Assembly: GCA_963787445.1 (NCBI GenBank)
Contig: CAWBCT010000005.1
Location: 595,143 to 659,142, forward strand
From: an uncultured archaeon
Lineage (GTDB): Archaea > Micrarchaeota > Micrarchaeia > Micrarchaeales > CABMGC01
Length of the DNA stretch: 64,000 nucleotides
Reading direction: 5' to 3'
The notes beneath the pieces were generated by a model. The model had not been told where the DNA came from and did no database searches. It saw nothing but the letters and a program-made list of their open reading frames with translations. Below are positions 5,526-26,038 of this stretch, piece after piece. The translations under genes and the position numbers were made by a program. Every line of letters starts with the position of its first letter. Position 1 is the first letter of the stretch.

Positions 5526-5688
5526 CAAACTGAGATAGGTATATAAATCTGATTTTATACTTATATAGTTGTATTTTTAGCTTAAGGCGCGACCAATGAA
5601 ACATGTCCTACAGAATATGGGATTGCTAGAATCCTCTATCCCTCAGAGCCAATCCCCTATTTTCTACTTAAATTAATTAGGTGACTAT

Positions 5689-10753: not shown

Positions 10754-10770
10754 ATAGCACAGGTATCAAA

Positions 10771-12186
10771 ATGGCCGATCAAAAAACAGCCGCTAGCGTA
10801 GTTCAATCCGAGGAGTACAAGGAGAGGTACGGATTCAACGTCAACGTCGAGTACGACGACTTCGAGAAGGGCCTTTCCGAGAAGGTTGTGCGCAAGATCT
10901 CCGAGATAAAGGGCGAACCGGACTGGATGCTCGAGAAGCGCCTGACTGCGCTGAAGATATTCTACAGCAAGCCGATGCCCAAGTGGGGTGCGGACCTTAG
11001 CGGCATAAATTTTGATGATATCTGGTACTACAGGAACCCGAAGCACGTGAAGGCGAACAAGTGGGAGGACGTTCCTGAGGACATAAAGAAGACCTTTGAG
11101 AAACTCGGAGTCCCGGAGGCGGAGAGGAAGTTCTTTGCCGGCGCCGAGTCGCAATTCGACTCTTCGGTGGTTTACTCCCACGTAAACAAGGAGCTCGAGA
11201 GGCTTGGGATAATATTCGTAGACACCGACACTGCGGTAAAGAAGTATCCTGAACTGGTGAAGAAATACTTCGGGACAGTGATTCCCTCCACAGACAACAA
11301 ATTCGCAGCCCTAAACACCGCAACCTGGTCTGGTGGTTCGTTCATTTACATTCCAAAAGGCGTCAAGGCAACAATGCCGCTTAATGCCTACTTCAGAATC
11401 AACGCAAACAACTCCGGCCAGTTCGAAAGAACCTTAATAATCGCGGATGAAGGAGCCGACGTTACGTACATCGAAGGTTGCACTTCGCCAGTCTACTCGG
11501 CAAACTCGCTTCATTCAGCGATAGTCGAGCTTGTGGCGATGAAAGATGCGCACATACGATACGTCACAATACAAAACTGGTCAAAGAACATTTACAATCT
11601 TGTTACGCAACGCGCGCATGTAGGGGAGAACGGGCGCGTTGAATGGATCGACGCCAACATAGGCAGCAAGATCAACATGAAATATCCCTCAATATACTTG
11701 ATGGGCAAGGGTGCGAGCGGAGAGGTCCTCTCAGTCGCGGTCGCCGGAGATGGGCAGGTGCAAGACTCAGGCGGCAAGATATATCACCTAGCCCCCAATA
11801 CAACCTCAAAGATAATTTCAAAGAGCGTCTCTAAGGGCAGCGGAGTCAGCACCTTTAGAGGGTTGCTGCACGTGGCAAAGAACGCCGCCAATTCAAAGTC
11901 GCACGTCTCGTGCGACGCGCTCCTGCTCGACGGCTTCGCAAAGACCAACACCTATCCTTACAACCAGATAAACCGCAGCGATGCAATCATCAGCCACGAG
12001 GCCAAGATCGGCAAGATAAGCGATGAGATGATCTTCTACATGATGTCGCGCGGCATACCTGAGGAAGATGCAGTTGCCATGATTGTGCTCGGCTTCATAG
12101 ACGACCTCACGAAAGTGCTCCCCATGGAATACTCGCTTGAGCTAAAGCGCCTGATAAAGCTGGACACGACGGGCGGAGTGGGCTAA
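10771..12186 (+). CDS. sufB: Fe-S cluster assembly protein SufB
   Basis: GLSEKVVRKISEIKGEPDWM, GQFERTLIIA, YIEGC and HEAKIGKI. Confidence 0.95.
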   Translation: MADQKTAASVVQSEEYKERYGFNVNVEYDDFEKGLSEKVVRKISEIKGEPDWMLEKRLTALKIFYSKPMPKWGADLSGINFDDIWYYRNPKHVKANKWEDVPEDIKKTFEKLGVPEAERKFFAGAESQFDSSVVYSHVNKELERLGIIFVDTDTAVKKYPELVKKYFGTVIPSTDNKFAALNTATWSGGSFIYIPKGVKATMPLNAYFRINANNSGQFERTLIIADEGADVTYIEGCTSPVYSANSLHSAIVELVAMKDAHIRYVTIQNWSKNIYNLVTQRAHVGENGRVEWIDANIGSKINMKYPSIYLMGKGASGEVLSVAVAGDGQVQDSGGKIYHLAPNTTSKIISKSVSKGSGVSTFRGLLHVAKNAANSKSHVSCDALLLDGFAKTNTYPYNQINRSDAIISHEAKIGKISDEMIFYMMSRGIPEEDAVAMIVLGFIDDLTKVLPMEYSLELKRLIKLDTTGGVG

Positions 12187-12201
12187 ACCGCGGTGAATTG
12201 A

Positions 12202-13449
12202 TTGAAGGACTACGGCGAGTTTAAAGAGGATGCGCTACAGCAGTACGCTAGCCTTCCGGACGAGCTCAACGAGCTTTACACGCGCTATTACCAGCCCATC
12301 AAGCTTCCGGAGCCTGATTCACTGAACGCCGCCGCAGCCCCCGCCTCTGCAAAGAAGGTCGAGGCTCTTGTCGCATCCATAGAGAAGAAGACCCGGATAA
12401 ACTTTGACCTTGTCTTCTCAGACTCGTTCGTGCGCAACAACACCGATTTCATACAGCTAAAGAAGGTAAGCGAGCTTGGCGAGCTGCTCGGGCGCAAGAT
12501 CTACAAGAGCCAGAACAACAAGCTTGCCGCATTCGTAAATGCGTACTCAACCGATGCAATACTCGTGAAGCTCAAGAAGGGCGAGAAGAGGAGCGTAAAT
12601 GTGCTCTTCATAAACGACTCAAACCTGCTGTTCCAGGGCATCTTCGAGGTAGGGGAAGGCGCAAGCCTCACTATTTCGGAGCTTTTTGCCTCAACCGCCG
12701 TTTCCGAGTCGCTTGTTGCGCCGCTTCAGGAGTTCCACCTGGGCCAGGACGCCCACCTGGAGCTGAACCTGATAGGCGACTGCAATGAGCAGACCACTTT
12801 ACTTAATCTATCTAAAGGCGTCCTCGGCGAGAACGCCAAGGCCCACGTGAACTTTGTGTACAACGGAGCAGTGCTCACCAAGGCGATAAGCTTCTTTGAC
12901 GCCCAAGGCCCCGGCAGCAGCATCGAGGCGTCGGAGATAGCCTACGGCACACGAAACCAGAGATTTGACATAAACACCTACGTGCTCAATGCAAAGGAGC
13001 ACACCAACACGCATCTTGAGACCGGAGCGGTTCTGGATGGAAATTCGTACTGTGTGTTGAAGGGTTACGCAAAGGTGGACAAGTGGACCAAGGGCGCGGT
13101 ATCCAGAGTCAATGAGCGCGGCATCATAATCAGCGACAAGGCACACATAGACGCGCTTCCCGACATGTCGATAGACTACAGCGACCAGGTCTCCGCCACG
13201 CACAGCGCGGCAACCTCTCCCATAGACCGGGAGGCGCTGTTCTACATGACCTCCCGCGGGCTTGAGGAGTCGACCGCGAGGAAGATGTTCGTCTCCTCTT
13301 TTATCTCAAAGTACCTCTCCTACATACAGAGCCCCTTCGCAAGGGAGCTTGCATCATCGATCATGCTCAGCAGGCTGGAGAACGACGCGTTCGGCATCAT
13401 GAAAGACGTTACGCCGAAAGGCATATGGCTGGCCACATCTACAGAGTGA
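12202..13449 (+). CDS. sufD: Fe-S cluster assembly protein SufD
   Basis: SufB paralog C-terminus (ATHSAA...LFYMTSRGL); operon context. Confidence 0.85.
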   Translation: MKDYGEFKEDALQQYASLPDELNELYTRYYQPIKLPEPDSLNAAAAPASAKKVEALVASIEKKTRINFDLVFSDSFVRNNTDFIQLKKVSELGELLGRKIYKSQNNKLAAFVNAYSTDAILVKLKKGEKRSVNVLFINDSNLLFQGIFEVGEGASLTISELFASTAVSESLVAPLQEFHLGQDAHLELNLIGDCNEQTTLLNLSKGVLGENAKAHVNFVYNGAVLTKAISFFDAQGPGSSIEASEIAYGTRNQRFDINTYVLNAKEHTNTHLETGAVLDGNSYCVLKGYAKVDKWTKGAVSRVNERGIIISDKAHIDALPDMSIDYSDQVSATHSAATSPIDREALFYMTSRGLEESTARKMFVSSFISKYLSYIQSPFARELASSIMLSRLENDAFGIMKDVTPKGIWLATSTE

Positions 13450-13453
13450 TAAT

Positions 13454-14179
13454 ATGAAACTTGAAATAAAGAACCTGCACGTATCCATTGATGACAAGGA
13501 AGTGGTAAAGGGAGTGGACCTCACGATAAACGAGGGAGAGCTGCACGTCATTATGGGCCCCAACGGCTCTGGAAAGACAACGCTGGCGAAGACGATAATG
13601 GGTCATCCGCAGCTGATGATTACCAAAGGCGACATCCTTGTGGATGGAAAGAGCATAAAGGAGATGAAGCCCAACGAGCGCGCAAGGCTCGGGATCTTCC
13701 TGCAGTTCCAGAACCCGATAGAGATAGAAGGACTTGGCCTTCTCAACTTCCTAAACTCCGCAAGAGGGGCAATCACCGACAAGCCGCTTCAGTTTAAGGA
13801 GTTCATGAGCGAGGTGAAGAACACCTCGAAGGATCTGGCACTCAAGGAAGAGCTGATCGGCAGGTCGCTCAACCACGGCTTCTCCGGAGGGGAGAAGAAG
13901 AAGGTCGAGATACTGCAGATGCACGTGCTGAAGCCGAAGCTTGCCATACTGGACGAGCCCGACTCGGGCCTTGACATAGACGCCCTCAGGATAGTGGCCC
14001 AGAACGTGGAAGCGATGAGAAGGGAGAAGAAGATGAGCCTGCTCGTGATAACGCACTACAGCCGCATACTCAATTACATGGAGCCCCAGTTCATCCACGT
14101 GATGAAGGACGGGAAGATAGTCAAGGAGGGCGGGAAGGAGCTCATCAATGAGGTTGAGAGCAAGGGGTATAACATATAG
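13454..14179 (+). CDS. sufC: Fe-S cluster assembly ATPase SufC
   Basis: GPNGSGKT, FSGGEKK, LDEPDSGLD and ITHY. Confidence 0.95.
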   Translation: MKLEIKNLHVSIDDKEVVKGVDLTINEGELHVIMGPNGSGKTTLAKTIMGHPQLMITKGDILVDGKSIKEMKPNERARLGIFLQFQNPIEIEGLGLLNFLNSARGAITDKPLQFKEFMSEVKNTSKDLALKEELIGRSLNHGFSGGEKKKVEILQMHVLKPKLAILDEPDSGLDIDALRIVAQNVEAMRREKKMSLLVITHYSRILNYMEPQFIHVMKDGKIVKEGGKELINEVESKGYNI

Positions 14180-14205
14180 CTCACCCTAATCCCTATGGTG
14201 CAAAA

Positions 14206-14385
14206 ATGGAAAACAAGGAGTTCAAGAGAATCTGGGAAAAAGAGGGCAAGAGACTTTTTGCATTAGAACAGAAGAAAGGAACCATAAAATGCGCCCCAGA
14301 TACACAAAAGAAAATAGCCAAGGAGGAGCCGAGGCATTCATTTCCTACTAAGCGTAAAAACACCGCCTTCAGCGGAATGTTTTAG
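14206..14385 (+). CDS. Small basic hypothetical protein (59 aa)
   Basis: Own translation MENKEFKRIWEKEGKR...SGMF*; fills the sufC-sufS gap; below the ORF track cutoff. Confidence 0.4.
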   Translation: MENKEFKRIWEKEGKRLFALEQKKGTIKCAPDTQKKIAKEEPRHSFPTKRKNTAFSGMF

Positions 14386-15644
14386 TGAAAGATATGGCGT
14401 TTGATGTCGATAAAATAAGAAAAGATTTCCCCATTTTGTCTACCAAGACGAATGGCGGCAAGCCCCTGATTTATCTCGACAGCGCAGCCACATCACAGAA
14501 GCCAATCCAGGTAATAAAAACCGTTTGCGACTACTACAAGACCTACAACGCGAACATACACCGCGGGCTCTACGATCTTTCTCTTAGGTCCACCGAAGCC
14601 TACGAGGACTCGAAGAAGGCGGTGGCCAAGTTCATCAACGCCGAGTCCTACCGCGACATACTGTACGGCAGGAACACGACCGAGGCGATAAACATTGTTG
14701 CACTCTCGTGGGGGGAGGCGAACCTAAAGAAAAATGACCATATCCTAATTACCCAGATGGAGCACCACAGCAACATCGTGCCCTGGCAACTGCTCGCGAA
14801 GAAGAAGGGTGCGGTTCTTGACTACGTTGAGGTAAAGAACGGAGCTCTTGACATGGAAAGTTTCAAGAAGCAGCTAGAGAAGAAGCCCGAGCTTGTCGCA
14901 TTCACCCACGTGTCCAACGTGCTGGGCACGATAAACGATGTAAAGGAGCTCACAAGAATTGCACACAGACATGGAGCGACCGTTCTAATCGATGGGGCGC
15001 AGTCGGTCCCCCACATGCCCGTGGACGTAAGGTCGCTGGACTGCGACTTCTTCGCATTCTCGAGCCACAAGATGCTCGGACCGGCGGGAGTGGGCGTGCT
15101 GTATGGCAAGGACGAGCTGCTGGAAGCGATGGAACCTGTCTACGGAGGCGGGGACATGATCCGTAGCGTAGGCTTCCAGGAAAGCACCTGGAACGAGCTG
15201 CCCTGGAAGTTCGAGTCGGGCACGCCGAATATAGAAGGAGCCATAGGACTGGGTGCAGCAGTAGACTACCTCGACAAAACTAGCATCCGCAGCATAAGAA
15301 GCCACGAAATCAAGCTCACCAGGTATGCATTGAACAGGCTTGAGGAGACCAGGGGTGTAACCGTCTACGGGATAGGTTCCAAAGCGATGACCGACTCGAA
15401 CAGGGGCGGTGCGATATCATTCAACATAAAGGGAGCACACCCGCACGATGTCTCCTCCATTTTCAACAGCCAGGGCATAGCCATAAGGGCCGGCCACCAC
15501 TGCGCAATGCCTCTCGTGAACCTGGTGCTGAAGGAACCCGCAGTAGCAAGGATGAGTTTCTACCTGTACAATGAGGAAGAGGAGGTGGATAGGGCGGTAG
15601 AGGCCGTTGAAACGGTAAGAAAAGTACTAAGGATAAAGAGTTAG
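14385..15644 (+). CDS. sufS: Cysteine desulfurase SufS
   Basis: YLDSAATSQKP, EHHSN, SSHKM (PLP lysine) and RAGHHCA. Confidence 0.95.
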   Translation: MKDMAFDVDKIRKDFPILSTKTNGGKPLIYLDSAATSQKPIQVIKTVCDYYKTYNANIHRGLYDLSLRSTEAYEDSKKAVAKFINAESYRDILYGRNTTEAINIVALSWGEANLKKNDHILITQMEHHSNIVPWQLLAKKKGAVLDYVEVKNGALDMESFKKQLEKKPELVAFTHVSNVLGTINDVKELTRIAHRHGATVLIDGAQSVPHMPVDVRSLDCDFFAFSSHKMLGPAGVGVLYGKDELLEAMEPVYGGGDMIRSVGFQESTWNELPWKFESGTPNIEGAIGLGAAVDYLDKTSIRSIRSHEIKLTRYALNRLEETRGVTVYGIGSKAMTDSNRGGAISFNIKGAHPHDVSSIFNSQGIAIRAGHHCAMPLVNLVLKEPAVARMSFYLYNEEEEVDRAVEAVETVRKVLRIKS

Positions 15645-15647
15645 TTC

Positions 15648-16325
15648 CTAACCCTTATAGAATCTTGACAAAACAGCGTCAGCTAGAATGTCCAAAGTGT
15701 CTATCTTGTTGATTTTGCTGTTCTCCAGCATTAAGGATATTTCAGTGCAACCCAGCACTACAAGCTCTGCGCCCTCACCGATCTTTCTATTGGCTATCTC
15801 ATCTACTCGGCGTATCTGCTCCTCTCTCGCAATGCCGGAATTAAATTTGAATATCGAGTCCGAGAGGGTCTCTTGCTCGTGCTTCGAGAGCTCCAGATAT
15901 TTTATCCCGCTCACCTTGAAGAGTCCGCTGTTTATGGTTGAAGGAGTTGCAAGTACGGTTATGGTTCCTACCTTCTTCTCGTTTATGAAAGCCCCAAACT
16001 CTTTCTTGAGGTCTACGATCGGGACGTTCACCGATTTCTGCAGTATGTCGTAATAGGAATGTATCGTGTTGCAGACCATCGCGATAAAGTCAACCCTATT
16101 CCCTTCGAGCTCCTTGAGCCCCTCTATGTAGGGCTGGAGCTCCTTCTTTGAGATGTTGTGGTAAACCAGCTCGGGAGCGGGGATGCTGTTTATTATGAAC
16201 TGCGGGAAATCCGCGTTTGACTTCACTCTTCCGCTGTCCTGCAGTTTTTTGATAAGGCGCAGGTAAAACGTGCCCGTGGCCTCCGGTCCAATCCCTCCAA
16301 GCAAGCCAATTTTACGTTGCATCAT
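15648..16325 (-). CDS. Aspartate/glutamate racemase family protein
   Basis: GLLGGIGPEAT, CNTIH and LGCTEI two-cysteine motifs. Confidence 0.88.
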   Translation of the reverse strand: MMQRKIGLLGGIGPEATGTFYLRLIKKLQDSGRVKSNADFPQFIINSIPAPELVYHNISKKELQPYIEGLKELEGNRVDFIAMVCNTIHSYYDILQKSVNVPIVDLKKEFGAFINEKKVGTITVLATPSTINSGLFKVSGIKYLELSKHEQETLSDSIFKFNSGIAREEQIRRVDEIANRKIGEGAELVVLGCTEISLMLENSKINKIDTLDILADAVLSRFYKG

Positions 16326-16665
16326 ATCACTCTGCTAAGAAACTCAATCTCCTTTTGAAAGTTTAGGAATAGGTTTCCGTCCATTTGGCAACAGCGCAAG
16401 CTACGCAAGAGCCTAAGGGCTCTCAGCTGCCAACCGCATTCCACTGGAACGGCATCGCCATCAATTCCTATTAATAAAATCAAATATATAAAACATTTGG
16501 TTAGACGAATCGGCCGCACCCTCGTCACCGGTTTCCCTTTTATTCTGCCCTGCGAGCACAGAGAACTGGAAAAGCTTAAATATCTCTGAATATATCCTAT
16601 TTAAGGGGAATGTAAAAGTGCCTGAGGTAGTCCGCCGGTGAGTGGGCAGCTCAGAGGTAGTTCTC

Positions 16666-18129
16666 ATGAACAAAATTCCGACAAAACCTGGCAAATACGC
16701 TGCGAATGGAAGGAGATGGGTAGGGGTAGCCTCATTTGAGGATAGGAAGAAGCCTGCAGAGGCCTCGATACCCAAGGTGGTTGTGACCCCGAACGGCAAT
16801 GCGATACTTTTTGAACGCCTTGCGAACGCCGTTAGGACAGGACCTGTCGGAAACGAGGCAGTGCTTTACGATAACGTAGGGGACCCTGTCCCTGAACAGC
16901 TATATTCTACTTTAGGAAACTATTCTGGCAAGCCACTGATAGTCACCAACCATAGGTTCGACAGCCTGAGGAATTATTCAGGAATGGCAGAGTACCTTGC
17001 GCATCCAGAGACCTTTGGAATAGCATCGGGCAGGAAGCCCAGCGGCCCGTGCCACTTCGGCCACAGGCTGGTGATAGACACCACAAGCTTCTTCCAGAGG
17101 AACAAGGTCCAGGTCTTTGTCCCGATAGCGGACAGCGAGGCCAGCCTTGACCGGAAGATCAAGAACAAGGCACAATACGAATACTTCATAGCAGACAACC
17201 TCCTGGACTGGGGTGCATCGGGTCTCGACCTTGATGCCGCGCACATCTATCTCCAATCGGAGGAGATGCGCGTGATGAACATAGGCTACGCGATGGCGCG
17301 TGGACTGGACCTGCCAGTAACTGTGGACGTTTATGGCAGGGACACTCTTGCTGACGAGATGAACTACCTTTTCGCAAGCATCGCCCAGGTGGGAGACATA
17401 CTGCTTCCGCAGCACCCGGACTTCGGGAAGAAGCACTCCTTCATGCTCTCCGGCGCCGATCAGGACGGGAACATGAAGATGACCATGGAACTAGCGTCCA
17501 GAGCCATGAGCGGCAAGGTGAGCGAATATGTCAGCACCGCGCCTTCTTCGTTATACATAACCTCCATCTCGAATCTTGAGGGTAAGAAGGAGAGCGCAAG
17601 CGAGCCCGACACAACGCTCTACCTGGGGCCTTCAAGGAGCCTATACCAGAAGACCGAGCAGGGCAAGATACTTGAAAGGATAGATAACCTGACGCTCTCT
17701 GATAGAATGCTCGACACTGATGAAAAGATTGACGGGTTTACCAAGAAAGACAAGGAAAAGGTGCTTGACGCCATCCGCAGGAGGCAGACGGTGTTTTCCG
17801 AATTTGCAGTAGATGATCTCAGCATAGATGGATTTAAGAGCATCATGAAAGAGGTACTCACTGCCCATCAAGAGAGGAGGAAAGAGGTCTATGAGTACGC
17901 GCTGTCAAGAGCTTTCCGGGACGCCGTTTCGAAACAAGACGCCAGAACAGCAGAAGCAGTGGTGGCCAATGGCATGCAAGTTCTGCCGGGTTTCAATGCA
18001 AGCAGAGTAAAAAGCAGCCCCTCTTTCTGGGAGACCCCAAATGAGGCATACATCCCTGAAGATAAGCGCAATGTCAGGACCCGATGGTTCAACATGGTCG
18101 CACGGATGGCAGGCCAGATAATGCCTTGA
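16666..18129 (+). CDS. Divergent tryptophanyl-tRNA synthetase paralog
   Basis: GRKPSGPCHFGH (HIGH), IADSEA, YLQSEE, QVGDILLPQ and GADQ; KMSKS replaced by KESAS; GAGGT RBS before ATG at 16666. Confidence 0.75.
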   Translation: MNKIPTKPGKYAANGRRWVGVASFEDRKKPAEASIPKVVVTPNGNAILFERLANAVRTGPVGNEAVLYDNVGDPVPEQLYSTLGNYSGKPLIVTNHRFDSLRNYSGMAEYLAHPETFGIASGRKPSGPCHFGHRLVIDTTSFFQRNKVQVFVPIADSEASLDRKIKNKAQYEYFIADNLLDWGASGLDLDAAHIYLQSEEMRVMNIGYAMARGLDLPVTVDVYGRDTLADEMNYLFASIAQVGDILLPQHPDFGKKHSFMLSGADQDGNMKMTMELASRAMSGKVSEYVSTAPSSLYITSISNLEGKKESASEPDTTLYLGPSRSLYQKTEQGKILERIDNLTLSDRMLDTDEKIDGFTKKDKEKVLDAIRRRQTVFSEFAVDDLSIDGFKSIMKEVLTAHQERRKEVYEYALSRAFRDAVSKQDARTAEAVVANGMQVLPGFNASRVKSSPSFWETPNEAYIPEDKRNVRTRWFNMVARMAGQIMP

Positions 18130-18141
18130 TGAGGTTTATTC

Positions 18142-19212
18142 ATGGAGTTCAAAACCAAGACTAACGGCGGCAGGGAAAACAGCGTTAGGCTGACCGATGT
18201 ATTGAATCAGAATCGCCTGGTGCACACGAGCCCCGGATCGGAGGGCCTTTCTCTAAGGATTGAGAAGTGCCAGGCTGAGAAGAGGCCGTTTAGGATGCTA
18301 TATGGCGAAACCTTCGACGGAAAGGGCAACCCTCTTGACAGCCTGAAGTATTACCTCTTCGTTAGTGCGCTTTCCAAGGCGATCAAGAGCAGCTATCAGG
18401 TTGATGTTGAGTCGACGATTCTGGTCGCAGACCTGGGCGTGTACAGAAACTATCCCGAGGAGGTCCAGGAGTACAAAAAGTACGCTGCAAGCCGGGAAGC
18501 CTTCGCCAGAAAGGTAAAGGAGGTGTACAAGTGCTCCTACGATGTCCGACTGATGAGCGAGATCTCAGACACGCCGGAGTTCAGACAGAGGTTCGGCAGG
18601 GTCAGCGAGATAAGCAACCTCGACGCGGAGCTCATGGGCATGATCCGCAAGAGCGTGCCAGAGGACAGGCTCGAAGCGGAGGCAAAGCGCGGTTACAAGT
18701 ATCCATTCGAAGAGATCGCCACAATACTGGGCCTGGACGTGAAGGTCGGGCCGCCGAGAGAGCAGCTCTATGATGACATAGCGAACTCCATGCTCCCCCA
18801 CTTCAACGTCAGCCCTCTGCTCCCGATCTATCTCACCCCCACTTATCCGGTCGGCACTAACTTTGCAGCCTACACGAGCTCTCCTGCAACCAAGCAGTAC
18901 GGCCTTACGCCCTATAAGGTTGGCAGCAGCGGGATGACCGCCCACAGGATCGTCCTAGGGGTAACCAGCGTGCAGGAGGCAAAGCGGCTCATAGACGAGA
19001 CACAGATCTCCTCGTCGGCCACGAAGCCGAACCCGGTTTGCGACATCCTTGTCCTGGCAGACCTCGCAAGACAGCACCTCGAAGGGGAGTTTGTTCAGAA
19101 GGATGTTGCAGACACTCTTGAGCTGTACTATAGAAACAGGATCCGCTCGCACCAGATCAAAGAGACCGCTTTCACGCATCTGCGCGACCATGTATTAAAT
19201 TATTTCGGCTGA
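18142..19212 (+). CDS. Class Ic aaRS-fold protein, TyrRS-like without HIGH (possible CDPS-like enzyme)
   Basis: ILVADLGVYRN and YPFEEIATILGLDVKVG parallel archaeal TyrRS ILLADLHAYLN and YPIMQVNDIHYLGVDVAVG; no HxGH. Confidence 0.5.
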   Translation: MEFKTKTNGGRENSVRLTDVLNQNRLVHTSPGSEGLSLRIEKCQAEKRPFRMLYGETFDGKGNPLDSLKYYLFVSALSKAIKSSYQVDVESTILVADLGVYRNYPEEVQEYKKYAASREAFARKVKEVYKCSYDVRLMSEISDTPEFRQRFGRVSEISNLDAELMGMIRKSVPEDRLEAEAKRGYKYPFEEIATILGLDVKVGPPREQLYDDIANSMLPHFNVSPLLPIYLTPTYPVGTNFAAYTSSPATKQYGLTPYKVGSSGMTAHRIVLGVTSVQEAKRLIDETQISSSATKPNPVCDILVLADLARQHLEGEFVQKDVADTLELYYRNRIRSHQIKETAFTHLRDHVLNYFG

Positions 19213-19216
19213 TCCG

Positions 19217-20338
19217 ATGGATGACCAGGAAGGAGCAAATCAAGGGGAACGAGTCGACCCATGGGGCAGCGAAGCGTTCACGAACCCGGACCAGGATTTT
19301 GCAGATTTCAAGATAGCCAAAATACCCTCCCATGCTCTTGAGTTCTTCAAGGGAAAGACCTTCCTGTTCGACCGCGGGTTGATAATCAGGCACAAGGATT
19401 TCGAGACCATACTACGGAGGATAGAACTTGGCGAGGATTTCCTGGTGATAAGCGGCTTTTCAAGCTCCGGGGAGCTCCACTATGGTCATAAGTCAGTCAT
19501 AGACATTTACAACTTCTTCCGCAAGTTCACAAAGGAGGGGCGATTTGCAATCTGCGATCTCGACGCCTATGTCAGCAGGTCGGACGAAAAGATTCCGGAC
19601 CTTGCCACTGCCAGGAAGTACGCCGTAGACAATGTGGCAGATGCGCTCGCCCTAGGAGTTCCCGAAGCGGACATACGGGTGCAGAGTAACCAGAGCCTTG
19701 ACTACCACAACTTCGTGCTTCAAATCTCAAAGAGCCTCTCCTTCAACACCATGAAGGCGGTGCTCGGACACTCTGACCTGGGCAAATTCACCGCAACATA
19801 TCTCCAGATAGCTGATATACTGTACCCACAGCTGGAACTGCACGGAGCCCACTCCCTGGTGCCCGTAGGCATAGACCAAGAACCGATACTAAGCCTGGCC
19901 CGGGACGTGGCCAAGAAGCTGAGGAAGAGCCACGGCTTCATCTCACCATCATCCTTGTACACCGCACACCTGCCCTCCCTAGTCAATATGAAGGACAAGA
20001 TGTCAAAGAGCGAGAAAGGCTCGGCACTGCTTCTAAACTCGACAGTGGCGGAGATCGACCAGACGATAGCCCACGCGACCACCGGCGGGAGGGACACCCT
20101 ACAGCAGCAGATCGAGCTAGGAGGCACCCCGGGCAACTGCCCCCTGTATTATCTTCACAGGTCAAACAACCCGGATACCGCAGCTGTAGCTGATATCTAC
20201 AGCAATTGCAAGTCAGGAAAGCTGATGTGCAAGGATGACAAAGCAGCACTGAAGGAGCTATTCAGGGCCAACGCCGCAGCCCACATCGAAAGAAGGGAGC
20301 GATTCATGGAAACCGCAAAGCGGATAGTTGCACGATAA
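19217..20338 (+). CDS. trpS: Tryptophanyl-tRNA synthetase (archaeal type) or close paralog
   Basis: VDPWG, HYGH, LQIADIL, VPVGIDQ, KMSKS and TTGGR...GG..C...C..G...C. Confidence 0.8.
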   Translation: MDDQEGANQGERVDPWGSEAFTNPDQDFADFKIAKIPSHALEFFKGKTFLFDRGLIIRHKDFETILRRIELGEDFLVISGFSSSGELHYGHKSVIDIYNFFRKFTKEGRFAICDLDAYVSRSDEKIPDLATARKYAVDNVADALALGVPEADIRVQSNQSLDYHNFVLQISKSLSFNTMKAVLGHSDLGKFTATYLQIADILYPQLELHGAHSLVPVGIDQEPILSLARDVAKKLRKSHGFISPSSLYTAHLPSLVNMKDKMSKSEKGSALLLNSTVAEIDQTIAHATTGGRDTLQQQIELGGTPGNCPLYYLHRSNNPDTAAVADIYSNCKSGKLMCKDDKAALKELFRANAAAHIERRERFMETAKRIVAR

Positions 20339-20357
20339 AATATAGAAACGTGATTCT

Positions 20358-21053
20358 TTGGAGCTGAAAAACCTGCGCGAGAAACTGGACGTGACAAACC
20401 AGCGGATAATAACCAAGCTCAAGGACAGGTCACGGTTTCCCCTAAACCCGCCTGTTTACATCGCGGACGCAATACCAATAAAAGGCAGGCCCGGAATCTC
20501 ACTTCTGGAGTTTGCGCTGGAGGGGATAGAGGTCTACCACTCATCTTTGGGCAGGTATGATTATCACGACCAGTATCCTGTTTTCTCAAGAAAGCTGCCG
20601 GGAAGCCTGGTCGAAAGAGTGACCCCCCCGACTTCACTCCAGGAGGTGTCAATAACCATATCGACAGACCTGCTTTCCTACTACCAGCAGATGCTGCCCA
20701 GGCTATGCGATAAGAAAGAAGCTGACCCCACCACCTACGGCGAGACCGCCTACGTGGATGCCGACACCCTGCAGCTCATACACGAGAGGATAAACAGCAC
20801 CGGCCGCTATGTGGCTCAGGTCAAGCTTGAGCGGAACGGGAGCCTCAACGTCGACCACTCTGATGAAAAGAAGATCAGGGACCTTCTGAGGGATGCGAAG
20901 AGGGAGGGTGAAGTGATAGAAGAGGCCAAAAAACTGGCAGCAATGCAGGGACTTGAGCCTAACCTGATCGGAGAAGTGATCGGCTGGGTCATAGACAAAA
21001 CCCTCGAGGTGGAGGTCAAGTACATACAGAGGCTTGACGCCCCCAAAGCATAA
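20358..21053 (+). CDS. Chorismate mutase, eukaryotic (Aro7/AroQ-beta)-like
   Basis: LKNLR..L...RSRF...VY, SLLEFAL...H..LGRY, ERI..GRYVAQVK and EVEVKYIQRL follow the yeast Aro7 motif order. Confidence 0.75.
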   Translation: MELKNLREKLDVTNQRIITKLKDRSRFPLNPPVYIADAIPIKGRPGISLLEFALEGIEVYHSSLGRYDYHDQYPVFSRKLPGSLVERVTPPTSLQEVSITISTDLLSYYQQMLPRLCDKKEADPTTYGETAYVDADTLQLIHERINSTGRYVAQVKLERNGSLNVDHSDEKKIRDLLRDAKREGEVIEEAKKLAAMQGLEPNLIGEVIGWVIDKTLEVEVKYIQRLDAPKA

Positions 21054-21089
21054 ATATCATAGAAAAGCACTAACAATAAACGTGATTCA

Positions 21090-21452
21090 ATGTTCGGACC
21101 TGAATTTACCGCAACGCACCATCGAGAGTGGGGTTCGCACTTCAAGGAGAAGGAGCCGCTCCGCACCAAACTGGCGCTAGTCGGCACCATAACGGCAGGG
21201 AACCTGGATTTTGCCGCGATAGTGGCAAGACGGCTCTCTCCGAAAGACAGGAAAGCCTCGGCATTAGAAGGCGTAGCGCGCCTGGCCTTCCTCAAGGCTG
21301 ACACAACTCTCATCAGGGGCGCAGCAAGAACATTCGGGCTAACCGACGAAGAGACAAAGGGTGCAGTGGGCGACGCGGTCAAGGAACAGAGACGCCTTGG
21401 CGACACCGTGGTTCCTCAAAGGCTTGAAGCGGAATTCGGCCTAAAAACGTAA
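21090..21452 (+). CDS. Hypothetical protein
   Basis: 120-aa ORF co-oriented after the chorismate mutase; no recognised motif. Confidence 0.5.
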   Translation: MFGPEFTATHHREWGSHFKEKEPLRTKLALVGTITAGNLDFAAIVARRLSPKDRKASALEGVARLAFLKADTTLIRGAARTFGLTDEETKGAVGDAVKEQRRLGDTVVPQRLEAEFGLKT

Positions 21453-21467
21453 TTATTAGTTATAGTT

Positions 21468-21779
21468 TCATCCTTCAAACTTCTTCTCATCCTTCCTAGC
21501 TCGCTCGTGCGCCTCCTTTAGGCTATGACCCTCGTTCTGGTACCTTATCTCCTGGAGCTCGTGGTAGGCTATCTTCATGGCGTGCCTCTTCCACCTATCA
21601 GATATCCAGATCTGGCCCAGCGGGATTCCGAGCTTGGCGGCGGCTTTGGGGGCGTAGCGCCTACCTTTGTAAACCACGTTGTAGCAGGCTATGTGCTCTC
21701 CGATCAGGCTGTGGGGCACGAAGACCACTTTGTAGCCAAGGCGCCTGAGCCCGCTTGCTATGGAGGATTTGGTGGGCAT
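21468..21779 (-). CDS. Small zincin-like protein (HELxE...H)
   Basis: AYHELQE...EAHERA; ATG at 21779. Confidence 0.5.
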   Translation of the reverse strand: MPTKSSIASGLRRLGYKVVFVPHSLIGEHIACYNVVYKGRRYAPKAAAKLGIPLGQIWISDRWKRHAMKIAYHELQEIRYQNEGHSLKEAHERARKDEKKFEG

Positions 21780-21889
21780 GGAATATAAATATCGTAAATC
21801 GGGTTCTAAAAGAATTATGTAACCACAAACTAAACCTATTTTTATCACAATGTTATTAAATTCTTACGTTCTAGTTTAAACTTGAGTAA

Positions 21890-22861
21890 ATGAAAGAATA
21901 TCCACTAGATAAATTCCCTAATATAAATATGCGACCGGAAGTGGTTATTAAGCATAAAGAACATCTTGATGCACTCAAAGACGATATAATTGAGTATAGC
22001 AAAGTTGGCCATAGAGATACAATTATGTTTGATTGGCTACTCAGAGTTTTTGAGAATTTGGGTCTCTCAACAGTGAGAAAGGAATACTTAGATTCATTAG
22101 CTATAACAAAGACGCGGTTAGCTTTGTTTGTGGTATTGATTGATGATCCAGTCGACAATATCAAAAAGCGTAACTTTAAACTTTTCGAAGAACTTCTCAA
22201 GATCCCATTTAATCCCGAGCAAATAGATAAATCTCAATTTAATGTTCATGATGTTGAATATCTTGAATTTACAAAAAACTTGTGGACTGAGATCACAAAC
22301 GAGATTACAAAATATCCTGATCATAAGAGATATAAAGAAGCCTTTGAATTTGATATCAAACAACTTCTTAATTCTATGAGCTATAGCCGATTTGTAAATA
22401 CCTACCCTAATGCTATTAACTTGACTGAGAATGACGCTTACGTACATCATAGTATGATAGTTTTAATAGAAATGGACATTGATCTGATGTGCTCGCAAGG
22501 ATTTGATGAGCGTGAATTTGGAGCATTAAGAGAATTAGGTTACATCTCTCAAAAGATGGCGAAGATAGGTAATATTATAGGAACATATCCTCGAGAACTT
22601 ATTGAATCAGATATGTCCAGTAGAGCAGTGGTAAAATTTCTGACAGATAACGGCGCAGATTTTGGATTCAAATTAAATAAACTAATTAAAAAAGAAATGA
22701 GGTATCCCGAGTTCGAAAAAAACCTAACAGACGAATGGCAAAAGGAGTACTTACTAACTATCGATTTATCAAAAAGAATAAAATCAATTAATACACAAGA
22801 TTTCATAAAACAACTAGAATTCGTACAAAAAGCATACCAAATTAAAACTGACTATTGGTAA
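21890..22861 (+). CDS. Class I terpene synthase/isoprenoid-synthase-fold protein
   Basis: LIDDPVD (DDxxD) and GNIIGTYPRE (NSE/DTE-like); helical composition. Confidence 0.55.
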   Translation: MKEYPLDKFPNINMRPEVVIKHKEHLDALKDDIIEYSKVGHRDTIMFDWLLRVFENLGLSTVRKEYLDSLAITKTRLALFVVLIDDPVDNIKKRNFKLFEELLKIPFNPEQIDKSQFNVHDVEYLEFTKNLWTEITNEITKYPDHKRYKEAFEFDIKQLLNSMSYSRFVNTYPNAINLTENDAYVHHSMIVLIEMDIDLMCSQGFDEREFGALRELGYISQKMAKIGNIIGTYPRELIESDMSSRAVVKFLTDNGADFGFKLNKLIKKEMRYPEFEKNLTDEWQKEYLLTIDLSKRIKSINTQDFIKQLEFVQKAYQIKTDYW

Positions 22862-22880
22862 AATTTGTGCTGCTTAAATC

Positions 22881-23426
22881 TCATAATTGTTCTTCATAAA
22901 GAGACGGAAATCGTTCTTTCAGGTTTTTATTGCCATCAATAACTATCTTACAGACATTATTACTATTAGCTTGGTATTCTACTTCTATAGCATCAAAATC
23001 TCTATCCGTAATGGCAGATATTAAACCCGCAATAATACCGCGTAACAAGTGATCTATATTTCTATATTTTGTATTTTCAAATTCTTTTATTAAGAAAGAA
23101 TCTTCTAAGATTAATGTCCCAGTGGGGATTGTATTAGCATCTTCGTACTTTACATTCCCATAACCATATAAGTTTATAGTATTACAAATCCAGTTTTTAT
23201 CTGTTGACTGTGCAAACTCTGCTTTAAGATTTTGTTTGTATTCCAACATAGATTTTTTTGAAATTAAATAAAGTGTCTTTAATGACCCCAAATCATCATA
23301 CGCTTTACTTAAATATGCAGTTATACTTTGTGGCGGAAATATCAGAACATCTTGTCCATAAAGTGTTACTTTTCCATCTACAAATGTCATTTTTCTTGTT
23401 ATCATCAACATCTCAAAAAAGTTCAT
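22881..23426 (-). CDS. V4R-domain protein
   Basis: YGYG...RGIIAGLIS...AIEVE...CKIVI. Confidence 0.65.
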   Translation of the reverse strand: MNFFEMLMITRKMTFVDGKVTLYGQDVLIFPPQSITAYLSKAYDDLGSLKTLYLISKKSMLEYKQNLKAEFAQSTDKNWICNTINLYGYGNVKYEDANTIPTGTLILEDSFLIKEFENTKYRNIDHLLRGIIAGLISAITDRDFDAIEVEYQANSNNVCKIVIDGNKNLKERFPSLYEEQL

Positions 23427-23992
23427 TCGATGTCACCAAACCTTTTTGCTGCTAATTCAGGAAAATTTTCAAATAATTCTTTTTTAGAACCCCAATAGTA
23501 AACGCATACGTCATTACCCGAACATATACACTTTGTTTCTATAACATCTATATCCATATTGAATGTACCACTTGCAGATCCTGCAATAAGACCTTCAAAG
23601 ATAAAATCAGAAGGTTCTTTTATCCCTTTATTTTTAAGATAATCATGCATCGGAAGATCTTTTATATTCATAAATCCGCGTTTACCATTTTCATCTAAAA
23701 GTTGATATTTTACTAACCCCCAACCTCCGAAAGCACAATACTTAACCCATCTATCCAAAAAATCTTTAGGGGTTAGCATGTATTCCTTACCTAGTGGTCT
23801 AGAAAATTCTGCCATACCCTTTTTCATACACCCATACAATTCTCTTGCCTTTCTTGGCGTATTATTGATATCTATAGACAACATACCCACAAAATTTACT
23901 GGCAAAATCACTATCCGTTGTTTATCCATAGTTATTTTGCCAGGTTCTATATTAACTTCTTTAGCAAGCGAAAATTTTTCGAATATGTTCAT
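23423..23992 (-). CDS. V4R-domain protein
   Basis: GGWG...EGLIAG...VIETKCICSGNDVCVY, the typical V4R C-terminus. Confidence 0.75.
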   Translation of the reverse strand: MNIFEKFSLAKEVNIEPGKITMDKQRIVILPVNFVGMLSIDINNTPRKARELYGCMKKGMAEFSRPLGKEYMLTPKDFLDRWVKYCAFGGWGLVKYQLLDENGKRGFMNIKDLPMHDYLKNKGIKEPSDFIFEGLIAGSASGTFNMDIDVIETKCICSGNDVCVYYWGSKKELFENFPELAAKRFGDIE

Positions 23993-24068
23993 TAAATCGC
24001 CTTAACATCGTAATACGATATTACTTTATTAGAGCTAATAGTAGTTTTATTGGCTCTTGTTTACCATA

Positions 24069-24803
24069 TTATTTATAAACTTGTTCGGCAGGCTTTACAG
24101 ACATACCTATCTTACCAAACTCCAAGTCATGTACATATTGGCTATGGTCTGTATTTCTCATTTTCAAGATTGATAAAGTTCTGCTTCTCCTTGCACCTAT
24201 AAGTTGATTGTACATAACAACAAGACCGTCACACATGAACTCGCTAACACCATCTACTGTGAGGTGCTCCCCCCCATCTACTGAATCTGTTATTATCATA
24301 TTTGTTGTAGTAAGATCACTTAATTTATTTATTACCAAATAAGTTATACGCTTTTCAGAATCACCAGTATAAACTGTTTTATTTCTAGACCCGAGATAAC
24401 TAATTGGTATGGTGAATTGGTCTATATTTACTGAAAAAATCTCCAGACTATCAAAAACTAATCTTTTTGCATGAGTAGTATTTACTGCATCCTCTATGAT
24501 TTTAAAAAGATCAAGTTTAACTACATCCATTGGGATCGACAAAAACGTAATCTTACCTTGGCTTTCAAGACTATTCAAATCCCATCCAAATCTTTTTCCT
24601 TGTTCTTTCAGCATATCTGTATTAGATTCAAGAGATACATATAATCCATTTTCTCCAGCTAAAGCCCCACTGTAAAGATATTGCAACCCAAAAATGGTTT
24701 TACCAGTACCTGGTGCTCCAACCAGCAAGACATTGAAATTTTTTGGTACGCCCCCCTCTACAAGCTCATCGAAACCGGGAATGCCTGTCTTTACTCTTTC
24801 CAC
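24069..24803 (-). CDS. KaiC/RAD55-family ATPase (single domain)
   Basis: RVKTGIPGFDELVEGG, GAPGTGKT, RLVFDS and ILKMR. Confidence 0.9.
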   Translation of the reverse strand: MERVKTGIPGFDELVEGGVPKNFNVLLVGAPGTGKTIFGLQYLYSGALAGENGLYVSLESNTDMLKEQGKRFGWDLNSLESQGKITFLSIPMDVVKLDLFKIIEDAVNTTHAKRLVFDSLEIFSVNIDQFTIPISYLGSRNKTVYTGDSEKRITYLVINKLSDLTTTNMIITDSVDGGEHLTVDGVSEFMCDGLVVMYNQLIGARRSRTLSILKMRNTDHSQYVHDLEFGKIGMSVKPAEQVYK

Positions 24804-24934
24804 GTCAAAACCTCTAGCTAGTATCGGTATGGTATAGCAAACTATTTATGCATAACGCAGAAAACATAGTCACTTGCTGAAAGCAAAATTGTTATTGAAT
24901 TATAAACCTTTATTATGATGTATTAATTGAGTTT

Positions 24935-26038
24935 ATGACAACTACAAAATACTCAACACTATTTGAAGACCAAGCTTTTGGTATTCCAGGTTACATTTCT
25001 AAACAATTCCATGCTCTAGATAACAAAAAGTTCTTTATTAGAAATATATTCATACCAGAATCCTTTTTTGTAATACTTGAGCAGACCATAGTAGAAAACA
25101 AAGGAGACAAAAGAAAAAAGGAATTATACAGGATGGGAAAGCAATTTGGTTACCGATTTGCACTTCTTAATCGGTTTCCCAAAGGTAATATTAACAAAGT
25201 CACAATGCGTTCCGTGTTTGATTTCTTCCAAACAATCTACGCAAAGAAGATGACTACATTAAATATAGATTCCCAATTGAAGATGGTTGAACTAGAACTT
25301 GATGAATTCATAGTAACTTCCAAAGATGATATGGGTTATATGCCTATTGGAGCCGGCGCAGGTGCATGGTGTTACTTAAATGGTGATTATAATCTTGATT
25401 GTAGCACCCAAAAATTATCGAAGGGTAAGCATGTACTTTTATGTGCTAATAAAAAGATTCTTAAAGAACGGGGATTTGAAGTAATCGAATCTAAGCAAAT
25501 GCCAGAAAGTATTGATTTTAAGAGCTATATGGGCCATAACTTGCCACAAAAAGGTATGTTCAAATCATCAAGTTTTAGCCAGCTGCTTAAAACTGGAATT
25601 GCTTCGTATACACCTGGAATAATAAAATTAGAAAAATCAAATGAAAGGTTAATAGTACTTGAGATATCCATACTCTTTGATATAGAAAACACCTTTGATC
25701 AGAAGTTAATATCAGACTCTTCATATACGCCATTCTACAACATTGGACTTTCTCTAAAGGAAAAAGAAAAACCATACGATAGTCTCACCGAACTGCTTAG
25801 CGCCTTTGGATTTGGTATTGTACAGGTAACCGAAAAGAAAGATACGGTATCAGTCCTCTTTCATGGATATCCGTGGTTCTCAACAGAAACCGAGAAAACA
25901 AGTTTTGGTCTTATTAAAGGGGCTGTTCTTGGCTTCCTTAATGGTATTACTGAAAGAAAATATGAACTAAAATCTTTATCCTCAGAAGTTACGAATAACG
26001 TATTTGATGTATCCATGGAATTGGAAATCAAGGAGTAA
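24935..26038 (+). CDS. Tandem V4R-like domain protein
   Basis: Two repeats: LYRMGKQFG...AGAW and FYNIG...AFGFG...KGAVLGFLNG. Confidence 0.5.
   Translation: MTTTKYSTLFEDQAFGIPGYISKQFHALDNKKFFIRNIFIPESFFVILEQTIVENKGDKRKKELYRMGKQFGYRFALLNRFPKGNINKVTMRSVFDFFQTIYAKKMTTLNIDSQLKMVELELDEFIVTSKDDMGYMPIGAGAGAWCYLNGDYNLDCSTQKLSKGKHVLLCANKKILKERGFEVIESKQMPESIDFKSYMGHNLPQKGMFKSSSFSQLLKTGIASYTPGIIKLEKSNERLIVLEISILFDIENTFDQKLISDSSYTPFYNIGLSLKEKEKPYDSLTELLSAFGFGIVQVTEKKDTVSVLFHGYPWFSTETEKTSFGLIKGAVLGFLNGITERKYELKSLSSEVTNNVFDVSMELEIKE

Follow-up and report, generated by a model that had tools for sequence, protein, structure and literature searches.

A patchily distributed cassette of tryptophanyl-tRNA synthetase-like genes, a tyrosyl-tRNA synthetase-derived partner and a chorismate mutase in a Micrarchaeota genome: a possible auxiliary tryptophan-charging module

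Why would an archaeon keep three class Ic aminoacyl-tRNA synthetase-like genes side by side, next to a tryptophanyl- and a tyrosyl-tRNA synthetase (TrpRS and TyrRS) of the ordinary kind, and what is a chorismate mutase doing right behind them? The genes raising this question, designated g1 to g4 below, lie within a stretch of 64,000 nucleotides of contig CAWBCT010000005.1 (positions 595,143 to 659,142 of the forward strand; “the window” hereafter means this whole stretch) from an uncultured representative of the Micrarchaeota (assembly GCA_963787445.1; 1.05 Mb, 19 contigs, estimated to be 82% complete) and are, as the initial annotation of this DNA had it, four co-oriented and tightly packed plus-strand open reading frames (ORFs), with intergenic gaps of just 12, 4 and 19 nt in the order g1-g2-g3-g4 (Table 1).

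The architecture, which that annotation did not recognize from described archaeal clusters, is not new: the three synthetase-like genes match a cluster of TrpRS-A-like, ORF1 and TrpRS-A genes reported from DPANN archaea and bacteria of the Candidate Phyla Radiation (CPR) by Mukai, Reynolds, Crnkovic and Soll in 2017 (Life 7:8; PMC5370408). As far as the accessible text of that paper goes, its 12 TrpRS-A genes always come with ORF1 and beside a canonical TrpRS; in bacteria, the operon also includes a tRNA-Trp with the A73 of archaea, a feature stated as constant for the bacterial operons only, the archaeal clusters hold a TrpRS-A-like paralogue with insertions and deletions, and the function was left open, although those 12 instances led the authors to suggest that ORF1 forms a heterodimer or that Trp availability is involved (PMC5370408). 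Judged by which genes it holds, by their order and by the properties described in 2017, the trio in the window is a Micrarchaeota instance of that cluster, with g1 corresponding to TrpRS-A-like, g2 to ORF1 and g3 to TrpRS-A. The same three families follow one another in the same order, the ORF1 of the paper, like g2, is devoid of both Trp and sequence similarity to known proteins, g3 coexists with a canonical TrpRS, and g2 ends 4 nt before g3. The window differs, however, in its host (“Micrarchaeota” is a word absent from the accessible text of the paper, as are “chorismate”, “racemase” and “aminotransferase”), in having one ORF1 for two TrpRS-like genes and no tRNA-Trp inside the cluster, and in the addition of a chorismate mutase behind the trio and a racemase at its flank. 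Moreover, CysRS was the best template in 2017 for ORF1, which was then modeled as a class I-like protein (“the Rossmann-fold domain missing”), whereas the model obtained here has a complete TyrRS fold, and the 12 TrpRS-A instances of that time compare with ORF1 in 53 species-level loci and 168 clusters at 50% identity. In the literature searched, PMC5370408 stands alone in its use of the terms TrpRS-A and ORF1 (a 2025 preprint dealing with TrpRS pairs from metagenomes mentions neither), and no mention of an ORF1-TrpRS-A fusion was found in the passages of the 2017 paper searched. What is new with respect to the 2017 account is the TyrRS origin of ORF1, the conservation of its core, the fusions, the Trp depletion, the distribution of the tRNA-Trp(A73) gene over the loci, the company of mutase and aminotransferase genes, the inheritance as a unit and the lack of the remaining aromatic pathway in the genome, even if the figures or supplements of that paper may list loci, Micrarchaeota members or neighboring genes counted as new here. 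The reading favored here, with slightly less than even confidence, is that of an auxiliary module for Trp charging that moves horizontally and has an ORF1·TrpRS-A pseudo-dimer at its center, for conditions under which Trp-tRNA is scarce.

The member that is the hardest to recognize is g2. No tRNA-synthetase family was found for it in Pfam or NCBIfam, none of 40 ORF1 sequences matches Pfam tRNA-synt_1b or the cyclodipeptide synthase (CDPS) family PF16715 at E-values of up to 1, BLASTP of g2 against g3 gives an E-value of 2.8, and nothing was found by hhalign when the ORF1 profile was compared to the single sequence of the housekeeping TyrRS (probability 1.4%); the kinship between ORF1 and TyrRS is visible only via the fold and a weak profile match in the PDB (to Methanocaldococcus jannaschii TyrRS, MjTyrRS; E 0.15). 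The AlphaFold model of g2, built with 40 homologues (pLDDT 92.9, pTM 0.91), shows the whole archaeal/eukaryal TyrRS fold, i.e., Rossmann domain, CP1 and C-terminal helical domain, with N. equitans TyrRS (7fg6) as its top Foldseek match (E 1.9e-11) and nothing but TyrRSs among the top 50 VIA entries (best Z 26.7, root-mean-square deviation (rmsd) 2.8, 305 residues across model residues 3-356). The catalytic signatures are, however, all missing: the HIGH site reads S67-L68-K69-Y70, the GxDQ site is occupied by an invariant G-P-P-R-E, whereby the ribose-binding Asp/Gln are gone and an Arg is gained, and the KMSKS region reads Y-K-V-G-S, in a motif register derived from the weak hidden Markov model match to MjTyrRS and from secondary structure, not from superposition. 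The call of a TyrRS-like protein without HIGH made by the initial annotation can thus be retained, and on its predicted structure ORF1 is a TyrRS-derived pseudo-synthetase, as opposed to its 2017 description.

Might such a protein, along with its neighbors, be just a decaying paralogue retained by chance? It could be argued so from g1 and g3 scoring below every curated TrpRS cut-off and g2 being unrecognizable by sequence, and relaxed selection on g1 and g2 is something that the initial annotation had allowed for. Their cores are, however, strongly conserved: 30 residues are invariant over 40 ORF1 sequences sharing 29-79% identity with g2, the catalytic motifs are invariant in the orthologues of g1 and g3, the reading frames of all the cassette genes are intact, and the gene order is kept across DPANN and CPR. 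Since the conservation data contradict it, decay can be regarded as excluded, its probability being practically nil, and g2, by the conservation of its sequence, is not decaying. The ORF1 positions conserved to at least 90% (n = 48) include 40 in the two Rossmann halves and 5 in the C-terminal domain, and D97 and N103 align with the “ADL..YLN” stretch of TyrRS in the MjTyrRS profile match.

As for the spread of the cassette, ORF1 has 92 relatives in 90% clusters, and its 50%-identity clusters, found among 1.84 billion representatives, include 112 at E ≤ 1e-10. The 53 loci come from species-level genomes that are labeled as Micrarchaeota, Woesearchaeota, Nanoarchaeota, Aenigmatarchaeota or one of many Patescibacteria groups and, together with the window, make up the 54 loci compared below (on ORF-based maps, from which ORFs shorter than 70 aa or overlapped by longer ones were dropped, and to which the partial g1 matches of L011 and L058 were added by hand). 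The gene behind ORF1 is TrpRS-like in all of the 53 but one (52 loci), namely, L044, which ends 93 nt past ORF1. TrpRS-A-like is present in 18 of the 54 loci, 12 of which also have a second ORF1 paralogue (ORF1′), the order then being g1, ORF1′, ORF1, TrpRS-A, and a single ORF1 is seen in the five Micrarchaeota-type loci (the window, L006, L007, L008 and L058). The ORF1 sequences of Micrarchaeota, which are also the nearest named relatives of g2, form a lineage of their own in the FastTree phylogeny, outside the main 48-row ORF1 clade and on the same side of the branch labeled 98* as the ORF1′ clade. One woesearchaeal locus (L025) has identical ORF1 copies at 198-1199 and 4774-5775, each followed by TrpRS-A and together flanking TrpRS-A-like and ORF1′; here, the pair has either been duplicated in tandem or is repeated through an artifact of assembly.

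The four genes are, furthermore, gained and lost as a unit, which is accessory and patchy in its distribution, and the cassette has apparently been transferred across domains. Across the phylum, 151 genomes were sampled, of which only 2 match the ORF1 profile, and the two genomes of the same genus (94% and 90% complete) do not; four relatives without ORF1 have exactly two class Ic matches each and no chorismate mutase, while the genome G063, which does have ORF1, shows four such class Ic matches and an uninterrupted row of g1, ORF1, g3 and mutase genes. The co-conservation that the initial annotation proposed to look for is thus there.

ORF1 and TrpRS-A are also found as one single in-frame ORF, namely, in L007 (731 aa) and L008 (698 aa), whose products are just 31% identical to one another, and in P0123 (778 aa; ORF1 at residues 40-317, tRNA-synt_1b at 465-741), the TrpRS half of which shares ~50% identity with the TrpRS-A of tRNA-linked CPR-type loci. 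Nothing speaks more strongly for the two proteins working as a 1:1 unit than these Rosetta-stone fusions, which argue for ORF1 being an obligate partner of TrpRS-A. A complex prediction for TrpRS-A and ORF1 (ipSAE 0.00 and 0.00, run with no controls) says nothing either way on binding. A comparable arrangement is known from the double-length pseudo-dimeric TyrRS of Leishmania major (PDB 3p0h/3p0j), itself among the structural matches of ORF1 (VIA Z 24.8), where two class Ic bodies make up one asymmetric unit and only one half carries the catalytic signatures, the single chains of L007, L008 and P0123 being alike in this respect. In the cassette, however, the halves belong to different families (TyrRS-like and TrpRS-like) and are usually encoded by separate genes, the half devoid of motifs is the N-terminal one and has a highly conserved pocket, and the halves, where separate, are proposed to associate.

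What would such a pair be charging? The genome has two class Ic genes beyond the cassette, both on the same contig, i.e., a housekeeping TrpRS (C5:370014-370865; TIGR00233 235.1 vs. a cut-off of 176.75) and a housekeeping TyrRS (NF006330 383 vs. a cut-off of 220), and the cassette genes are, therefore, extra copies; the separate trpS and tyrS that the initial annotation had wanted sought are both present, and g3 is not the only TrpRS. No tRNA gene was found within positions 12000-26000 of the window, and ARAGORN called no tRNA-Trp in this genome. The only candidate tRNA-Trp of the assembly lies ~11.6 kb downstream of the cassette; ARAGORN reports it as a tRNA-Arg(CCT) with an intron inside the anticodon, whereas an intron placed at the canonical 37/38 site makes the anticodon CCA. 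This gene has G1-C72 and A73, its intron holds a box-C-like GTGATGA (a fold of the intron did not settle the splice register), and an intron-less tRNA-Arg(CCT) is present on contig C14; it is probably the tRNA-Trp(CCA) of this organism and hence the likely substrate.

The linkage to tRNA is far more direct elsewhere. Of the 53 related loci, 48 were scanned with ARAGORN (the short loci L009, L035, L044, L049 and L050 were left out), and 24 of these have a tRNA-Trp(CCA) directly upstream of ORF1, in 20 cases on the ORF1 strand and in all 20 with A73; most of the tRNA-linked loci are labeled as bacteria. These tRNAs have ordinary elongator features, with GG in the D loop and a GGTTCRA-type T loop in most. 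No tRNA-Trp stands by ORF1 in the four Micrarchaeota-type loci scanned (L006, L007, L008 and L058) or in the cluster of the window. The presence of an A73 tRNA in mostly bacterial loci and its absence from those of Micrarchaeota fit a portable archaeal-type enzyme that brings its tRNA only into G73 hosts. In L012, L016, L018 and L034, labeled as Woesearchaeota, the tRNA-Trp is divergent, lying on the minus strand ~60-140 nt upstream of ORF1, and has a G discriminator.

The amino acid composition of the products tells a similar story. Compared to a baseline of 0.91% Trp in other ORFs of the same loci (140 of 479 Trp-free), ORF1 has 0.16% (31 of 55 Trp-free), TrpRS-A as a whole 0.32% (24 of 51) and TrpRS-A of the tRNA-linked loci no more than 0.04% (23 of 26); in the window, g2 has no Trp residues, g3 has one and g1 has four. 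Taken together, the linkage to tRNA-Trp(A73), the Trp depletion of ORF1 and TrpRS-A and the fusions point to Trp-tRNA synthesis itself.

The enzymes proper look active. In g3, which the initial annotation rightly took for an intact TrpRS-like protein, the motifs read H-Y-G-H, G-I-D-Q and K-M-S-K-S; it matches Pfam tRNA-synt_1b (E 1.4e-27) and, in NCBIfam, only TrpRS models, all of them under the cut-off (TIGR00233 166.8 vs. 176.75, NF008925 250.6 vs. 451), while a profile of the TrpRS-A family finds A. pernix TrpRS (E 8.6e-93), and all the class I motifs are kept in an alignment of 45 sequences. From these features, g3 looks like an active auxiliary TrpRS. Likewise, g1, 29% identical to g3, matches tRNA-synt_1b (E 9.5e-17) and solely TrpRS models in NCBIfam, all below the cut-off (best 135.6 vs. 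451), and its alignment and model (pLDDT 82.6; VIA Z 27.4, rmsd 3.2 over 314 residues, C-terminal domain included, against P. horikoshii TrpRS, 3jxe_B) show the complete fold of an archaeal TrpRS, extended at the N-terminus and with insertions in the C-terminal part. Its motifs are H-F-G-H, G-A-D-Q-D-G and K-E-S-A-S, and H138, G140, H141, D273-G276 (DQDG), K316, S318 and S320 are invariant in the 14-orthologue alignment. While the TrpRS-like nature of g1 was called correctly, the “degenerate KMSKS” ascribed to it is a misnomer: K-E-S-A-S is one substitution away from the K-M-S-A-S of the housekeeping TrpRS of the same genome, and, because all 14 orthologues share the K and both S residues, this KMSKS equivalent is probably functional. 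By its motifs, then, g1 looks like a second adenylating paralogue in working order.

An extra TrpRS could also serve as a backup against an indolmycin- or chuangxinmycin-type antibiotic from neighbors or hosts, as second TrpRS genes for stress or against inhibitors are known, e.g., TrpRS II of Deinococcus and the indolmycin-resistant TrpRS of Streptomyces (PMC9437257, as far as its accessible text goes). Being accessory, patchy and apparently transferred across domains, and coexisting with a housekeeping TrpRS from which its pocket differs at the equivalents of Tyr159 and Gln194 (see below), the cassette would suit such a purpose, and Trp-free rescue proteins would be useful precisely when an inhibitor depletes Trp-tRNA. 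The extra TrpRSs of Deinococcus and Streptomyces are, however, bacterial-type single genes that have neither a TyrRS-like pseudo-synthetase partner nor a dedicated tRNA or a third paralogue, and resistance would leave the neighboring chorismate mutase, aminotransferase and racemase genes unexplained. We know of no TrpRS inhibitor in these habitats, which counts against this explanation as well, and we consider it very unlikely.

A different possibility, which sharpens the idea of the initial annotation and which the conserved core of ORF1 brings to mind, is tRNA-dependent chemistry outside the ribosome, where TrpRS-A and/or TrpRS-A-like would load an aromatic amino acid, perhaps one supplied by the mutase and a HisC-like aminotransferase, and ORF1 would use the aminoacyl-tRNA as an acyl donor, transferring the residue to an acceptor or else hydrolyzing mischarged tRNA (trans-editing). 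CDPSs (AlbC, Rv2275, YvmC) are, after all, class Ic-derived Rossmann proteins as well, which have lost HIGH and KMSKS, kept the aminoacyl pocket and carry G-x-S/T and Y-x3-E motifs; in AlbC, the essential G35-x-S37 and Y178-x3-E182 sit at the places of MjTyrRS G34 and Y151/Q155 (PMC3105412, in the portion of it consulted). In ORF1, whose conserved positions cluster at the pocket region, G55-x-T57, which is invariant and located where the first Rossmann strand ends, and Y187-x3-E191 (E in 31 of 40) resemble these catalytic motifs, the ORF1 profile matches AlbC weakly and non-significantly (E 0.75), and a distant ORF1-like protein, P0228, has a sub-threshold CDPS match (E 0.004). Both the mutase and the aminotransferase associate with TrpRS-A-like, albeit in loci that are not phylogenetically independent. 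Against this stand a register between ORF1 and CDPS/TyrRS that comes from sequence and secondary structure instead of superposition, a Thr at the putative equivalent of the nucleophilic Ser, the full length of ORF1, which keeps an anticodon-binding domain, compared to the ~240-aa single domain of CDPSs that has none, and the lack of any Pfam CDPS match in the 40 ORF1 sequences. Known enzymes using aminoacyl-tRNA, furthermore, draw on the housekeeping pool and need no dedicated synthetase or tRNA, and a role in translation agrees better with proteins so poor in Trp and with a tRNA of the ordinary elongator type. Overall, such chemistry seems unlikely, although it deserves to be kept in mind, and its most ambitious version, in which ORF1, with its CDPS-like features and no ATP motifs, would be no passive half-dimer but a new TyrRS-derived enzyme class acting on the aminoacyl end of tRNA, is less likely still. 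In that version, chorismate or keto acids would be scavenged and turned into an aromatic amino acid, to be activated by TrpRS-A-like, which has the mutase and the aminotransferase for company in genomes devoid of the aromatic pathway, the two proteins together forming a tRNA-dependent conversion, transfer or proofreading system for aromatic amino acids that is specific to DPANN/CPR symbionts.

Two side observations can be added here. P0207-P0238 (~290-380 aa) match only the core of the ORF1 model (profile ~70-230; E 1e-9 to 1e-5), and the ten of them that were checked have no Pfam family, bar the sub-threshold CDPS match of P0228; they may, by these matches, represent a further class Ic-derived protein family. 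A search of a protein atlas gave a DIT1_PvcA lead (score 0.94) with low recognition, the other returns being unnamed clusters.

That leaves the question of the mutase. The protein g4 is probably the Aro7-like enzyme for which the initial annotation took it: it matches the plant/yeast chorismate mutase model TIGR01802 (E 5.5e-25, albeit with a score of 88.4 vs. a cut-off of 170.9), just exceeds the cut-off of Pfam CM_2 (28.1 vs. 27), and has PDB homologues at E 1e-17 to 1e-12, among them Arabidopsis CM1 (1.7e-17) and yeast chorismate mutase (1.3e-14), to which it aligns over nearly its whole length. In contrast to the setting of those two enzymes, however, the rest of the pathway was not found in this genome: no chorismate synthase (PF01264), prephenate dehydratase (PF00800), prephenate dehydrogenase N-domain (PF02153) or TrpA (PF00290) was detected in the 82%-complete assembly, where g4 is the only CM_2 match. 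Judged by these searches, g4 is an orphan mutase whose aromatic pathway context is absent.

The recurrent genes among the 54 loci are chorismate mutase (9 loci), the Asp/Glu racemase (7), a HisC-like class I/II aminotransferase (7; TIGR01141 260.5 vs. a cut-off of 276.55), an enolase resembling OSBS/N-acylamino-acid racemase (4), an M28 peptidase (4, sitting between ORF1 and TrpRS-A) and an M15 D-Ala-D-Ala-dipeptidase-like protein (3). Chorismate mutase occurs in 8 of 18 loci with TrpRS-A-like vs. 1 of 36 without it (Fisher p 3e-4), and the aminotransferase in 6 of 18 vs. 1 of 36 (Fisher p 4e-3), although the loci are related and both p-values overstate the case. By their family assignments, the recurrent neighbors are amino-acid-supply enzymes, whereas no carrier, condensation, ATP-grasp, tailoring or export genes are recurrent among the annotated gene families of the 54 loci, so the natural-product or unusual-amino-acid pathway that the initial annotation had envisaged has no direct support, and this tells against tRNA-dependent chemistry too. 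A conserved ~333-aa protein without a Pfam or NCBIfam family (cluster c6) lies directly downstream of TrpRS-A in six CPR-type loci (L029, L030, L036, L037, L039 and L055), between it and a bacterial-type TrpRS.

The mutase could also be the target of a regulatory or sensor complex, in line with the Trp/Tyr-sensing complex that the initial annotation named as its alternative, in which ORF1 would act as a ligand-binding pseudo-enzyme, much like HisZ, a HisRS paralogue that regulates HisG. ORF1 lacks the ATP signatures yet has a strongly conserved pocket (D97 and N103; G-P-P-R-E), g4 is of the plant/yeast type, with Trp and Tyr exerting allosteric control over its yeast homologue, and the mutase is an orphan in this genome. 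As it is found in only 9 of the 54 loci, however, the mutase is not the general target of a sensor, the ligand binding is a suggestion of the conserved residues, and sensing alone would leave the tRNA gene dedicated to the cassette in 24 of 48 loci unaccounted for; a sensor, therefore, strikes us as distinctly unlikely.

With these alternatives set out, the auxiliary Trp-charging module remains the reading that we lean towards. An active-looking TrpRS, an A73 tRNA in largely bacterial loci, the ordinary character of that tRNA and the Trp-free make-up of the proteins are most simply accounted for if the product is Trp-tRNA-Trp made under scarcity, and the amino-acid-scavenging company suits symbionts unable to make aromatic amino acids. 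In molecular terms, g3 would activate Trp and charge tRNA-Trp bearing the archaeal A73 identity, while paired 1:1 with g2 as a hetero- or pseudo-dimer; g2 would be the subunit of TyrRS descent, stripped of the signatures for ATP binding yet still in possession of a conserved ligand pocket and the C-terminal helical domain. The module would be made and at work when Trp-tRNA-Trp is scarce, be it due to Trp limitation or to inhibition of the housekeeping enzyme. We infer, further, that g1 might be a second adenylating paralogue linked to the ORF1-TrpRS-A pair, and that g4 and the flanking racemase could be an amino-acid-scavenging set traveling with the cassette.

Several points weigh against this. 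Conservation of ORF1 peaks in the equivalent of the catalytic core, not in the anticodon-binding domain, a pattern suggestive of an enzyme or ligand binder in its own right rather than of a scaffold or a passive subunit that holds the tRNA. Human TrpRS reads the indole NH with Tyr159 and Gln194 (PMC2275098, in its accessible part), the equivalents of which, in our reading of printed alignments, are kept by the housekeeping TrpRS, while TrpRS-A has V/I and P (C in g3) and g1 has A and P; A. pernix TrpRS also lacks them and, since both it and TrpRS-A do, the Trp specificity of TrpRS-A is not established. A bacterial-type TrpRS stands beside the cassette in several CPR-type loci (6 of the 6 proteins tested pass the TIGR00233 cut-off), where translation has no obvious need for TrpRS-A. 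The TrpRS-A-like proteins, g1 included, are not Trp-depleted (0.95%, 0 of 16 Trp-free), g1 has no ORF1 paralogue of its own in the window, it is not obvious what Trp charging would gain from a chorismate mutase, and neither g1 nor the orphan mutase has an explained role. The fusions could, in principle, be assembly errors, though there are three of them in different lineages, and the biochemistry of the pseudo-dimer is read from sequences and models for every member. On a side note, the bacterial-type TrpRSs of L030, L048 and similar CPR-type loci have extra domains, with an N-terminal extension of ~150 aa, and in L048 also a C-terminal MetRS-C/CsaA-like tRNA-binding domain.

Around the cassette (Table 1), neither g5 nor the 323-aa ORF further downstream is counted as a member. 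The Fe-S assembly operon upstream invites a link with g3, which has C-x22-C-x6-C-x2-D where some TrpRSs carry a four-Cys 4Fe-4S motif; L006 also has Asp at the fourth position, the full C-x22-C-x6-C-x2-C is found in only 2 of 45 TrpRS-A sequences, and the operon is probably a mere neighbor, its position probably being a coincidence. Directly downstream of the cassette, the G+C content falls from ~0.51 to 0.32-0.34 at 22000-26000, a stretch that encodes a KaiC-like ATPase (24069-24803, minus strand), a weak V4R-domain protein and several family-less ORFs and is possibly an island of foreign DNA. A search of sequencing runs for the DNA stretch returned six DNA runs (soil and other metagenomes) and no RNA runs.

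Table 1. Features of the cassette and its surroundings (positions are those of the window).
Feature	Position	Strand	Remarks
g1, TrpRS-A-like, 495 aa	16642-18129	+	ATG at 16666 is an in-frame alternative start
g2, ORF1, 356 aa	18142-19212	+	TyrRS-derived pseudo-synthetase (from predicted fold)
g3, TrpRS-A, 373 aa	19217-20338	+	HIGH and KMSKS present
g4, chorismate mutase, plant/yeast type (AroQ, Aro7-like), 231 aa	20358-21053	+	CM_2/TIGR01802 matches
Asp/Glu-type amino-acid racemase	15648-16325	-	Divergent from the cassette; Pfam Asp_Glu_race E 2.6e-20; TIGR00035 108 vs. cut-off 93.1
SUF Fe-S assembly operon (SufB/D-like, SufD, SufC, SufS)	10684-15644	+	Directly upstream of the cassette
g5	21090-21452		No family; no homologue in any of the 53 loci
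323-aa ORF	21890-22861		No family; no homologue in any of the 53 loci
Probable tRNA-Trp(CCA), 60-nt intron	32643-32775	+	Rfam tRNA 50 bits; outside the operon

What, then, might the cassette mean for its hosts, and for the synthetases per se? Class Ic paralogues of unassigned role are rare, and here three are set side by side in small-genome DPANN and CPR organisms (~1 Mb), in which each gene kept is costly; the cassette crosses the divide between archaea and bacteria among episymbionts, apparently carrying a tRNA of archaeal identity into bacterial hosts. If the pseudo-dimer is real, it would be the first natural TyrRS-like/TrpRS-like hetero-synthetase and would offer a naturally orthogonal Trp pair for genetic-code engineering, whereas a catalytic ORF1, should that be the case instead, would stand for a new family of aminoacyl-tRNA-dependent enzymes. 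The natural fusions of L007, L008 and P0123 are ready-made constructs for biochemistry, and the structural, fusion, composition and neighborhood evidence gathered here makes the cluster described in 2017 directly testable.

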